NCBI RefSeq assembly: GCF_003018255.1
Contig: NZ_CP027440.1
Source of the DNA: Escherichia coli
GTDB taxonomy: Bacteria > Pseudomonadota > Gammaproteobacteria > Enterobacterales > Enterobacteriaceae
Length of the DNA stretch: 64,000 bases
Strand: one strand, 5' to 3'
Shown one piece after another: positions 48,285 through 54,400 of this stretch. The notes beneath the pieces are model-generated. The model saw only the letters and a list, made by a program, of their open reading frames with translations. It ran no database searches and had not been told where the DNA came from. The first letter of the stretch is position 1, and each line of letters opens with the position of its first letter. Made by a program: the position numbers and the translations under genes.

Positions 48285-49253
48285 TTAGCTTATTTTTTCG
48301 AGCATTAATCCCGCGCGTAATCCCAACGCTACCAAAGGATTAGGGAATAACACATACTCTACATCATGGGTTACGGTAAAACGTTCCTCCCCGTCCTGCG
48401 CCAGCAATGTTCCTTTCTCAAACGGCATAAAATTCAGCGTGTCACTTGCCATATGCATTTCGAAGGACGGCGAGTGGCGAGTAATTTGCGAAACCACCCG
48501 ATAACGGAGCGGCGGCGTTCTCACGATACCGACACTCTCACCAGATAGCAGCGCAGCAATTGCGCTGGCAGTGACTGCAAACTGGCGAAGATCGTTTTGT
48601 CCAAAGGGCAACGCTTTGCCGAGTTCCAGAGTACAGGCCAGCGCGCCAAAATGTCTGGCACTGAAATGGGTAAAAGTACCACCAGGCGTCTGATGGAATA
48701 CCAGTGCCTCCAGCCCCGCCGCCCCCAGCCACGTCAGAAATTTCTCGTCCCAGGGAATGTCGCGTTGCGGTAATACACCAAACTGCGGATGCAAGGAGCC
48801 ACGAATTGCGGTATGGAGATCAAGGTGCCAGCGCACAGATTCTTTGCCCTGGTCATAAAAATCTTCCAGGCACTGCTCCAGTTCGCGCGCCCGACAGGTT
48901 TCCCCGCTTTCAGCAAACAGTTGCCAACGACCGCCAAACATTCGATTCATATCGCTATGGCAATAACGTTTCCCTTGCTTCAGCGCAGGAGGATTCCCGA
49001 GGATCACCAGTAACCGCCAACGTAACGGGATCTCACCGTGAGATATCGCGCCAAGCAACGCGTCCAGCATTTCCACAGGTGCCGTCTCATTACCGTGGAT
49101 CCCCGCTGAAATCACCAGCGCGCCTTGCGGTGGCGTTAATGGCGTCAGTTCCAGCACGCCATCGCCCAGCCAGCGCCAGCGAACGCCGTTGATTTCTCGC
49201 TCGGTGATAACCGTTTTTTTACCCGTTAAGGTCAGAGCAAGAAAATTATCCAT
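48285..49253 (-). CDS. astE: Succinylglutamate desuccinylase
   Basis: 322-aa ORF recognised as AstE; overlaps astB by 8 bp. Confidence 0.95.
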
Positions 49254-50589
49254 TTCCCCCTCCCTCGCGCTGGAACGGATAAACCGAACCGAGATTCAGT
49301 AATTGGCTCAATACATCCAGTGCTTCCCGCCCTTCGCGCAGCAATTGCGGGTCGGCCAGATCGGCAGCAGTAAGGCGATCGCGGTAGTAACGATCCACCC
49401 AGTCATTGAGCGCATTAAACAGCGTATCGTTCATCATCACCGCCGGATTCACTGCCCGGCGTTCTTCTTCTGTCAATACCACGCGCAACCGCAGGCACGC
49501 CGGGCCTCCGCCATTCGCCATGCTTTCACGTAAATCAAAGACTTTTAGTTCGCTAATCGGGTTGTCAGCGGCAAGGAGTTCATTGAGATAACCCCATACT
49601 CCGGCGTGTTCCCGACACTCCTGAGGCAGCACCAACATCATGGAACCATCATCGCGGCTCAGCAGTTGGCTGTTAAACAGATATGTAGACACCGCATCTG
49701 ACACGGAAACCTGAGTCGCCGGAACTTCTATCGCCATAAAACCGTTCACCCGCGCACGCAGGCTTGCCAGTAACTGTGACTGGCGAGCGAACGCCTGTTG
49801 ATGGCAAAACAGCACCTGGCGGTTACTCACGGCAATCACGTCATTATGAAAAACGCCCTGGTCGATAACGTCCGGGTTTTGCTGGGCGAAAATCACCTGT
49901 TGGGGATTCACCTGATTCAGCCTTGCCACCGCCTCGCTGGCTTCGCGAGTCTGCCGCGCCGGATAACGGGAAGGCCGGGTATCATTGCCTTCTTCTCGCC
50001 CGTAGACAAAAAGTTGCATACCCGGTTCACCGTAATGACCGCCGAGACGATTGTGGTTTGCCGCCCCCTCATCACCGAGCAACGCTACCTGCGGCAACGC
50101 CGAATGGACACTAAATTTCTCTTCGTCGTTAAAAATCGCTTTTAACAACGATTCGGTGACGGGGGCTTCCAGCGAACGGTGAAATTTATTGTTCAGGTTG
50201 GCAACGGTGAGATGCACTTTGCCATCCAGCGTATCGGCAGATGGCGCGTTCGTTGCCGCATTGGCTACCCACATTGGCGAAGCGGAGCTGACGCTGGAAA
50301 GCCAGTGCGGTGCCTGGCGGGCAACCTTTTCCAGTACCTGCTCATCGCTGCCGCTGAATCCCAACTGACGCAGCACCGGAATAAACGGACGCTCGTGCGG
50401 CGGGATCACCGCCTGGGGGAATCCCGCGTCGGCAAGGGCTTTCATTTTCAGTAAGCCCTGCTTCGCCGCCAGTCGCGGGTTAGAGACCTGAAAACGGTGA
50501 CTGGTGGAGGCTTCATTACCAAACGACAGGCCCGCGTAATGATGCGTCAGCCCTACCAGCCCGTCGAAATTGATTTCCCAGGCGTTCAT
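49246..50589 (-). CDS. astB: N-succinylarginine dihydrolase
   Basis: 447-aa ORF recognised as AstB. Confidence 0.95.
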
Positions 50590-52064
50590 CGCACCACCTC
50601 ATCGGAAAAATCCAGCCCGGGGTTAAGCGTTGCGGGCAATGTTAACGAGTCCGACTCCAGACTTGCCATCGGCCAGGCACAATAATCTGCGGCATACCAG
50701 GCGCTGGGGCGATGGTTACCGGAAGCGCCAATGCCGCCGAATGGCGCGGTACTGGCAGCACCGGTAAGCGGTTTGTTCCAGTTAACAATCCCCGCCCGTG
50801 CCTCCAGCAACAGTTGATCGAATTTTTCCCGCTCGGGGGAAACCAGACCGCAAGAGAGGCCGAAGCGAGTGTTATTCGCCATTCGAATCGCTTCATCGAA
50901 ATTGTCATAACGCCAGACGCGCAATAACGGCCCAAACACTTCTTCATCCGGCACGCCAGTAACGCCTGTCATTTCAATGATCCCCGGCGTCAGCAACGAT
51001 GTCCCTGCTTGTAATAAGCGCGGCGCAAGCAGGGTCCGTCCGCCCATCGCCTCCAGTTCCTGCCAGGCAGTAACCACCTGCTGTGCGGCCTGCTCAGAAA
51101 TCAGCCCGCCAATAAACGGCTGCGGTTCGTCATCCCAACGGCCCGGCGTTAACCGCTGGCTGACGGCAACCAGGCGAGCAAGAAATGCATCGCCCTGCGT
51201 TCCACTTTTCAGCAATAAACGGCGGGCGCAGGTGCAGCGTTGCCCGGCAGTGACAAACGCCGACTGAATGGTCAGATGGACAGCGGCATCGATATCCGCC
51301 ACCTCATCGATAATTAGCGGGTTATTACCGCCCATCTCAAGGGCGAGAATTTTCTCCGGCTGACCGGAAAGCTGGCGATGAAGCTGGTAGCCGGTATTGG
51401 CGCTGCCGGTAAACAGCAAGCCGTCGAGATCCTCCAGCGCACTCAGCGCCTGACCCGTTTCACGCCCGCCCTGCACCAGGTTCAGCACGCCCGGCGGCAA
51501 GCCAGCCTGCTGCCATAAACGCATTACCGCTTCGCCACTCCACGGTGTCAGTTCGCTGGGTTTAAAGATAATGGTGTTACCTGCCAGCAATGCCGGAACG
51601 ATATGTCCGTTCGGTAAATGACCGGGGAAATTATACGGCCCAAACACCGCCAGCACGCCGTGCGGGCGATGTCGCAGGCTCGCCGCGCCGTCCGGCATTT
51701 CACTACGCTGCTCGCCGGTACGAACGTGATACGCCTTAATTGATATCGCGATTTTATTGATCATCGCCATCACTTCGGTTGCCGCTTCCCAGCGCGGCTT
51801 ACCCGTTTCTCTGGCAATAATCGCGGTTAATTCGGCTTTATTGCTTTCCAGCAATCCGGCAAAGCGTTCAACTCTTACCTGACGATCGCCAAAGGAGAGA
51901 CGCGCCCAGCGCGGAAACGCCGCACGGGCAGCCCGACAAGCCTGCCCGACCTGAGCGGCATCGGCATCATTGCCTTGCCATAACACCTCGCCCGATACCG
52001 GATTACGCTTCACACGCGATGCGCCCTGGCCCGTAACCCAGTCACCATTGATCCATAAAGTCAT
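50586..52064 (-). CDS. astD: N-succinylglutamate 5-semialdehyde dehydrogenase
   Basis: ORF-track frame trimmed to ATG at 52064 ([10 protein letters not shown]...), which overlaps the astA stop (ATGA); 492 aa. Confidence 0.95.
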
Positions 52065-53095: not shown

Positions 53096-54312
53096 GATGA
53101 ACCTCGGCTAACAAAGTGTTCGCAAGCAGCTGCAAAACGATCCAGCCCGGTCGTCACCTCTTCTTCGCTGACATTGAGCGCAGGCGCAAAACGCACCACA
53201 TTGCCACCCGCAATCAGTACCATCACGCCCGCTTTCGCCGCCTCCTGAGAAATTTGTTTCGCTTGCCCGGCGTAATCCGCATTCAGCACACAGCCAATCA
53301 GCAGACCTAATCCGCGAATTTCACTGAACAAACCGCAGCGGTGATTAATGGTATTAAGACGCTCAACAAACCAGTCGTGACGCTGTTTAACGCCATTAAG
53401 CATCTCTGGCGTGTTGATGAGATCCAGCACTTTACCTGCCACCGCCGAGGCCAGCGGATTACCGCCATAAGTGGTACCATGTGTGCCCACGGTCATCACG
53501 CTGGCGCATTCTTCGGTTGCCAACAGAGCGCCAACGGGGAAACCGCCGCCCAGCGCTTTGGCGGTAGTTAACAGATCGGGCGTCACGCCGTAGTGCATAT
53601 AGGCATACAGTTCCCCGGTGCGCCCGACGCCGGTTTGTACTTCATCAAAAATCAACAGCGCATTGTGGCGGTCACACAATTCACGCAGACCTTGTAAAAA
53701 TGCGTTGCTGGCTGGCACCACACCGCCTTCCCCCTGGATGGGTTCGACAATCACCGCACAGGTAGAGTCGTCAATCAGCGCGCTGGCAGAGTTAATATCG
53801 TTATATGCAGCATGACGAATATCCGGCGGCAGTGGCGCAAAATCCTGTGAATAGGCTGGCTGACCGCCCGCACTGACGGTAAACAGCGTGCGACCATGAA
53901 ACGCATTTTTAAACGCCACGATACCGCTCTTATGGCTGCCGTAGCGGTCGTGAGCGAATTTACGCGCCAGTTTTAGCGCCGCTTCGTTGGCTTCCGCACC
54001 GGAGTTACAAAAGAAGACGCGATCGGCAAACGTGGCGTCGATCAATTTTTTCGCCAGTCGCAGTACCGGCTCGTTGGTGTAACCGTTGCCGGTATGCCAG
54101 AACTTACTCGCCTGTTCGTTCAGCGCTTCACGCAGTTCCGGATGCGCATGGCCCAGCGCGTTCACCGCAATGCCACCCGCGAAGTCGATATACTCTTTCC
54201 CCTGCTGATCCCACAAGCGCGAACCTTCGCCACGTACCGGTATAAACGGTGCCGGAGCGTAAACAGGTATCATCCATTCATCAAAGTTTTCACGCGTAAT
54301 TGGCTGAGACAT
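53092..54312 (-). CDS. astC: Succinylornithine transaminase
   Basis: 406-aa ORF recognised as a class III PLP aminotransferase (AstC). Confidence 0.95.
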
Positions 54313-54384
54313 AGCGACCTCTACAGTAAATAATTCGTTATTTATATGTTAATAATAAGTAATGTTAGCGCTGTAAATGTAGAT

Positions 54385-54400
54385 TGCAGGGTTCGTGCCA
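54385..54400 (-). promoter_or_regulatory. sigma54 (-24/-12) promoter of astCADBE
   Basis: Reverse complement reads TGGCACgaaccCTGCA, i.e. GG-N10-GC with the canonical TGGCAC and TGCA elements, about 70 nt upstream of the astC ATG. Confidence 0.7.

Follow-up and report, generated by a model that had tools for sequence, protein, structure and literature searches.

The astCADBE operon of Escherichia coli K-12 (b1748-b1744; astC is also called cstC or argM) encodes the arginine succinyltransferase (AST) pathway, and rpoN- and ntrC-dependent induction of astC under nitrogen limitation has been reported for this strain. In Pseudomonas aeruginosa the same AST pathway chemistry is encoded by aruCFGDBE; there, two succinyltransferase subunits, AruF and AruG, correspond to the single AstA, and control is exerted by an AraC-type ArgR, whereas the enterics use hexameric ArgR together with NtrC and sigma54. 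The K-12 astC gene is among the few experimentally confirmed RpoN targets, and peaks of both the RpoN holoenzyme and NtrC were obtained in the astC/xthA spacer by genomic systematic evolution of ligands by exponential enrichment (gSELEX) (PMC8743547). An NtrC peak at K-12 astCADBE was also found by chromatin immunoprecipitation followed by sequencing (ChIP-seq) (PMC4066584), and the promoter astCp2 was described as a weak sigma54 promoter, bound and assisted by ArgR (bioRxiv 10.1101/086108). The operon is, in addition, under the control of RpoS, CRP and ArgR (PMC3590144), with an ArgR-dependent superinduction (PMC3590144, bioRxiv 10.1101/086108). The orthologous ast operon of Salmonella enterica (STM1303-1307) has a sigma54 site, TGGCACGAATGCTGCAAT, at the same position, detected by ChIP-chip, with NtrC as activator (PMC3844500), and ArgR-assisted activation has been cited for it as well. 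Here we compare with these systems an ast locus found in a window of 64,000 nucleotides of E. coli DNA (the whole stretch analysed; NCBI RefSeq assembly GCF_003018255.1, contig NZ_CP027440.1), which a previous reading made from the letters alone, hereafter the sequence-only reading, had described as a tightly coupled astCADBE operon behind a textbook sigma54 promoter.

The locus occupies positions 48285-54400 of the window and consists of five consecutive open reading frames (ORFs) on the minus strand, which direct translation identified as follows:

53092-54312, minus strand: astC, succinylornithine/acetylornithine transaminase, 406 amino acids
52061-53095, minus strand: astA, arginine N-succinyltransferase, 344 amino acids
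50586-52064, minus strand: astD, succinylglutamate-semialdehyde dehydrogenase, 492 amino acids from the ATG at 52064
49246-50589, minus strand: astB, N-succinylarginine dihydrolase, 447 amino acids
48285-49253, minus strand: astE, succinylglutamate desuccinylase, 322 amino acids

The five proteins were compared with the NCBIfam profile models of the AST pathway, applying the curated cut-offs (equivalog or subfamily), and all of them pass with full-length alignments. AstC scored 845.8 bits with NF009047 (cut-off 630) and also matched TIGR03246, while the other four matched equivalog models: AstA scored 730 bits with NF007770 (cut-off 521; residues 1-344 of 344 aligned), AstD 848.7 bits with TIGR03240 (cut-off 579), AstB 805 bits with TIGR03241 (cut-off 538) and AstE 479 bits with TIGR03242 (cut-off 306). 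The genes are co-directional, in the order C-A-D-B-E, and lie between spy and xthA, as in K-12 (spy-astEBDAC-xthA). When a 6.7-kb operon query was searched against complete E. coli genomes, it was found in 5,424 out of 5,426, with a top identity of 99.0%, and every match listed carries an astCADBE annotation. The K-12 operon shares with the window the gene order, the gene lengths, the overlaps of 4, 4, 4 and 8 bp between consecutive genes, the spy and xthA flanks and the sigma54 core; its proteins are 97.0-99.4% identical to those of the window (98.5% for AstC), and the nucleotide divergence is about 2-3%, distributed in a mosaic pattern. Between the window and strain 104 the AstD proteins are 100% identical, as compared to 97.0% with K-12, and the gene lengths in the RefSeq annotation of strain 104 agree with those of the window.

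These profile matches and the synteny with K-12 bear out the assignment of the genes to the AST pathway, and nothing contradicts the identification: the locus is the canonical E. coli astCADBE operon, complete and intact. The label of ordinary that the sequence-only reading had given to it is also appropriate, this being a well-known E. coli operon whose sigma54/NtrC/ArgR/RpoS control region is already known. The intact ORFs, 97-99% identical to the K-12 proteins, suggest that the AST enzymes are active. Antisense ORFs within the operon (162, 115 and 96 amino acids), none of which has a Pfam match, were taken as spurious. With high confidence, we consider the best explanation of the locus to be a canonical astCADBE operon with two overlapping promoters, under NtrC/ArgR control, and with overlapping junctions at which ribosomes would re-initiate locally.

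Start codons and junctions were compared with those of 80 related Enterobacteriaceae loci, gathered through AstA (75 to 82 loci were counted per junction). The N-terminus of AstA reads MMVIRP or, in 3 loci, MRVIRP. The second ATG of astA (MM...) was rejected as the true start because the first Met is conserved in all loci, whereas codon 2 is variable, and the equivalog profile NF007770 aligns from residue 1.

For astD, the longest ORF covers 50586-52121 and would give 511 amino acids, as compared to 492 from the ATG at 52064. The difference corresponds to the following segment:

52065-52121, minus strand: spurious 19-codon 5' extension of astD, inside the astA coding sequence

That the list of ORFs had over-extended astD by 19 codons was already stated in the sequence-only reading, and our results agree with it. 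Position 1 of NCBIfam NF006992 aligned to residue 20 of the long ORF, and the homologues 3ju8 (the succinylglutamate-semialdehyde dehydrogenase structure of P. aeruginosa, E = 1e-195), 5u0l and 4kna from the PDB align from residue 20-21; the extension has no homology in either the NCBIfam profiles or the PDB homologues. The short start is preceded by the Shine-Dalgarno (SD) sequence GAGGAG, inside astA, with a pairing energy of -9.1 kcal/mol, as compared to +0.3 kcal/mol, that is no SD, at the ATG at 52121. Moreover, the frame upstream of the conserved AstD start M[TSN][LQ]WI meets a stop within 19 codons in 42 out of 79 related loci, and a 492-residue AstD is annotated by RefSeq in both K-12 and strain 104. 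For these reasons, the ATG at 52064, which overlaps the astA stop, is supported as the true start of astD. Translation from the ATG at 52121, which would yield a 511-residue protein and a 61-nt overlap with astA, is extremely improbable. An ATG is indeed present there, the frame remains open for 49 codons further upstream, and an in-frame ATG at -19 codons recurs in about 30 related loci; however, this recurrent ATG falls within the conserved region coding for the AstA C-terminus and is most simply a by-product of the constraint on AstA in the other frame.

Two core promoter elements are found upstream of astC:

54385-54400, minus strand: sigma54 promoter core TGGCACGAACCCTGCA, with GG at 54399-54398 and GC at 54387-54386
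54369-54382, minus strand: sigma70/sigmaS-type promoter, with C at -13, the -10 element TACATT at 54381-54376 and the start site at 54369

The first corresponds to the motif TGGCAC-N5-CTGCA on which the sequence-only reading was based. It occurs only once in the 64-kb window, where 0.01 occurrences are expected by chance, and is located 88 nt upstream of the astC ATG. In CTGGCACGAACCCTGCA (54385-54401) the GG and GC doublets have the required 10-nt spacing, and the sole departure from the consensus TGGCAC-N5-TTGCW is the C at -15. The sigma54 core sequence is identical in K-12, while Salmonella differs in the bases of the promoter spacer. The upstream sequence was long enough in 78 loci, and every one of these has the pattern TGGCA[CT]-N5-[CG]TGCAAT at 87-91 nt from the ATG, with invariant GG and GC and variable spacer bases. 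Position -15 (54389 in the window) is C in 54 loci and G in 24, and the consensus T is found in none of the 78. Such a pattern would fit a promoter that is kept weak and relies on the ArgR and NtrC architecture. The adjective textbook suits the sequence of the element as such, but not the C at -15, nor a promoter that the literature calls weak. Promoters of the glnAp2/glnHp2 type share with astCp2 the -24 GG/-12 GC core and the tandem upstream NtrC sites; with respect to them, astCp2 is a weak member, with C or G at -15 and with DNA shared with a sigma70/sigmaS-type -10 element.

Nitrogen and sigma54 control has been documented for the identical promoter of K-12 and for the orthologous one of Salmonella, through RpoN and NtrC binding in the former and sigma54 ChIP in the latter, and may reasonably be carried over to the site in the window; this supports the nitrogen-regulated expression that had been proposed. 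The sigma54 promoter would be active under nitrogen limitation through NtrC, bound to two sites located some 230-250 bp upstream, with transcription predicted to start near 54374.

The second element came from a genome-wide map of K-12 start sites, in which an astC start was placed 57 nt upstream of the ATG, with the promoter ...CTGCAATCTACATTTACAGCG (PMC3415461 supplementary file 2); the cells were grown in M9 glucose with NH4Cl, that is in ammonium-replete medium (PMC3415461). This start, the only genome-wide mapped astC start that we found, corresponds to position 54369 of the window, about 5 nt downstream of the predicted sigma54 start. The GC of the sigma54 element lies at -18/-17 from it (the start is 17 nt past the GC, whereas about 12 nt is typical of sigma54), while TACATT is found at -12 to -7, with a C at -13. 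Because the GC is too far for sigma54 and TACATT is at the proper position, the mapped start was assigned to a sigma70/sigmaS-type -10 element. TACATT is in place in 74 out of 78 loci, and strong conservation runs beyond the sigma54 -12 element through ATCTACATTTACAG. Such a -10 element fits the documented RpoS dependence of the ast operon. By analogy with K-12, the window would then have two overlapping core promoters 57-62 nt upstream of astC; TACATT, beginning just downstream of the sigma54 -12 element, would serve stationary-phase and basal expression.

One might go further and suppose that the sigma54 motif is incidental, and that transcription of the operon depends in reality on the sigma70/sigmaS-type promoter that overlaps it. 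The sole genome-wide start fits TACATT and not the sigma54 spacing, astCp2 is reported as weak and the RpoS dependence is well documented. This hypothesis deserves hardly any credence, considering that the start comes from cells with ample ammonium, in which NtrC is inactive, that binding of the RpoN holoenzyme and of NtrC to the spacer was seen both in vitro and in vivo and the Salmonella site is positive in sigma54 ChIP, and that GG and GC are invariant in every locus despite the variable spacer, in a motif hardly expected by chance in the window.

Further upstream, the spacer between astC and xthA contains these candidate regulatory sites:

54598-54614 and 54618-54634, no strand assigned: NtrC-like sites TGCGCCATTCTGACGCA and CGCACCAAAAGCGGGCA, each with 3 mismatches to TGCACC-N5-GGTGCA
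54546-54575, 54462-54494 and 54413-54433, no strand assigned: conserved AT-rich blocks with TGAAT/TGCAT half-sites, from a phylogenetic footprint of 72 non-Escherichia loci

The two NtrC-like sites are centred at about -232 and -252 with respect to the predicted sigma54 start, 20 bp from each other. The ARG core is matched at 54547-54560 (2 mismatches) and at 54477-54490 (3 mismatches), and the three AT-rich blocks, located between the NtrC sites and the promoter, can be read as putative ArgR boxes. Scan matches for NtrC and ArgR were used only jointly with position, adjacency, conservation and published binding. ArgR-arginine bound to these boxes would aid the looping of the intervening DNA between the NtrC sites and the sigma54 promoter; at glnHp2 the loop protein is IHF, in contrast to ArgR at astC (bioRxiv 10.1101/086108).

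With respect to K-12, the control region of the window shows a CG-to-GA change at 54427-54426 and a 1-bp deletion at 54462 (minus strand, ...AAATGCATAT-GTTTGG...). The latter, GG to G in comparison with both K-12 and strain 104, lies at the margin of the middle ArgR block and precedes the predicted sigma54 start by about 88 bp. A search of 5,426 complete E. coli genomes gave no occurrence of a 35-mer across it, and the best match of a 61-mer is 98.4%, corresponding to one gap; 15 other loci of Enterobacteriaceae were inspected, and the spacing of the control region is constant among them. We take the deletion for either a private variant or an error of sequencing. It could rotate the upstream ArgR/NtrC module by about 34 degrees with respect to the promoter, with measurable consequences for NtrC-dependent activation or for arginine superinduction in the lineage, an effect that we regard as improbable; if true, the deletion would represent a naturally occurring helical-phasing mutant, in a sigma54 enhancer assisted by ArgR.

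All the internal junctions of the operon are overlapping, exactly as the sequence-only reading had reported, and the same overlaps are present in K-12 and strain 104. They measure 4 bp at astC/astA (catcATGAtg, with the astA start ATG over the astC stop), astA/astD (cagcATGAct) and astD/astB (gcgATGAac), and 8 bp at astB/astE (ATGGATAA), which is outside the canonical ATGA/TGATG class. The spacing of the corresponding genes in the related loci is as follows:

astC/astA: -4 in 78 of 82 loci, -10 in 2, truncated astC in 2
astA/astD: -4 in 74 of 79 loci, -1 in 5
astD/astB: -4 in 56 of 79 loci, -14 in 20 (Enterobacter, Leclercia, Lelliottia group), -1 in 3
astB/astE: -8 in 23 of 75 loci (Escherichia, Citrobacter and Salmonella only), +8 to +12 in 48, other values in 4

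At astC/astA and astA/astD, 94-95% of loci, over many genera, therefore keep the ATGA geometry, while the geometry of astD/astB and astB/astE differs by clade. The S. arizonae and S. diarizonae loci have the same astA/astD, astD/astB and astB/astE overlaps as the window, and in these two Salmonella loci the astC/astA overlap is 10 nt instead of 4. As for the truncated genes, astC of Escherichia albertii NBRC 107761 (locus L004, 5286-6182) begins with ATA instead of the start ATG and stops prematurely, so that 318 nt separate it from astA, and that of Citrobacter koseri NCTC10786 (locus L013) is truncated too, with a 417-nt gap; both are possible pseudogenes or assembly errors.

The SD energies at the five real starts range from -6.5 to -11.9 kcal/mol, as compared to a mean of -2.9 for the 156 ATGs of the region. 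In addition to that of astD, these SDs are GAGG for astC (-6.5 kcal/mol), one inside astC for astA (-6.6 kcal/mol), GAGGTGG inside astD for astB (-9.2 kcal/mol) and GGGAGGGGG inside astB for astE (-11.9 kcal/mol). Four overlapping junctions out of four are tidy but not extraordinary, because the K-12 annotation of the same region of about 66 kb includes five other co-directional overlaps (only ydiS/ydiT, btuD/btuE, ydjZ/ynjA, ynjB/ynjC and ynjC/ynjD) and about 15% of co-directional gene pairs overlap in most groups of prokaryotes (PMC6728339). From this geometry, translational coupling is a reasonable inference. Initiation at astC would occur de novo, at the GAGG in an unstructured leader; at the ATGA starts of astA, astD and astB, and at the astE start 8 nt inside astB, each with its SD in the preceding gene, terminating ribosomes would re-initiate locally, and the five enzymes would be held in fixed proportion.

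Some observations weigh against parts of this explanation. Each downstream gene owns an SD, so that independent initiation could explain expression without coupling, and 50 out of 75 related loci have, instead of an astB/astE overlap, a spacer of 3-12 nt (mostly 8-12), which implies that the overlap is not required there. Both facts are also what one would expect if the overlaps reflected genome compaction only, each cistron being initiated independently at its own SD and translation being uncoupled. The quality of all four downstream SDs (-6.6 to -11.9 kcal/mol) and the shifts of astD/astB among -4, -14 and -1 point in the same direction, and a search of the literature turned up no experiment on ast coupling. 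On the other hand, such a hypothesis does not account well for the retention of ATGA at the first two junctions across genera, and all but one of the E. coli ATGA/TGATG pairs that were tested are coupled via termination-reinitiation, SDs being typical of them (PMC6728339). As a general account of the operon, we consider compaction alone possible but rather doubtful, while independent SD-driven initiation is a live alternative to re-initiation, especially at astB/astE.

Other contrary points concern transcription. A scan with the NtrC consensus, allowing up to 3 mismatches, gave 30 matches in the window, which is not above the 32 expected by chance, and the ArgR consensus, at the same threshold, was no commoner in the window than in shuffled sequence. 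Judged by sequence alone the NtrC enhancer would be a weak proposal, and it draws on the adjacency of the pair in the spacer and on the ChIP-seq and gSELEX data published for the near-identical spacer of K-12. The private 1-bp deletion described above lies within this same control region. Furthermore, a start internal to astD, with the -10 element TATGAT, was mapped in K-12 at 308 nt upstream of astB (PMC3415461). In the window (50897-50920, minus strand) this element reads TATGAC, with loss of the conserved T at -7, and the astD-internal promoter may be weaker or absent. Finally, to say that the operon stands behind a sigma54 promoter is incomplete: the element itself is confirmed and was not refuted, but it is not the only promoter, given the overlapping sigma70/sigmaS-type one and the control by RpoS, CRP and ArgR.

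The 5' untranslated region of astC showed no stable structure (folding z = +0.8 to +1.1) and no Rfam family matched inside the operon; on these grounds, a structured leader or riboswitch upstream of astC was rejected. At the opposite end, a hairpin follows astE:

48255-48280, minus strand: hairpin with an 11-bp stem, 5 nt past the astE stop

Its RNA fold has an energy of -18.6 kcal/mol (z = -4.8), and none of 200 shuffled sequences folded as well. A strict terminator scan made no call at the operon end, the tail of the hairpin, AUUAAGUU, being a poor U-tract. The hairpin is the probable terminator of the operon, and a single astCADBE mRNA would end there.

The window as a whole is collinear with the K-12 chromosome from 1,776,000 (window position 244, where the K-12 stretch compared begins) to 1,841,672, with 97-98% identity. 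The gene ydjO (K-12 1,812,326-1,813,439) is missing, with about 64 bp in its place (window 35697-35761), and the arpB pseudogene lacks 864 bp (K-12 1,803,891-1,804,755) at about window position 28130. Over 36000-54800, complete E. coli genomes reach at most 99.0-99.3% identity, and the differences from the nearest genome bunch at 48500-49500, 52000-52500 and 53000-53500. This patchiness suggests a lineage of E. coli that has been poorly sampled and has undergone recombination. An origin of the window outside E. coli was rejected, despite these best identities, considering its collinearity with K-12 and the patchy distribution of the differences. Elsewhere in the window, Rfam matches above the gathering score were:

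19397-19555, minus strand: STnc540 small RNA
23396-23520, minus strand: Phe leader (pheM)
38541-38583 and 45695-45737, plus strand: ES036 (CssrF), two copies

The recognition of this well-characterised catabolic operon has little importance beyond quality control, showing that longest-ORF calling over-extends astD into astA, and the comparative data leave the understanding of the system unchanged. What they add is that about 80 enterobacterial species share fixed -24/-12 elements and fixed ATGA junctions at astC/astA and astA/astD, that astD/astB and astB/astE vary by clade, and that the consensus T never occurs at -15 in the sigma54 promoter.

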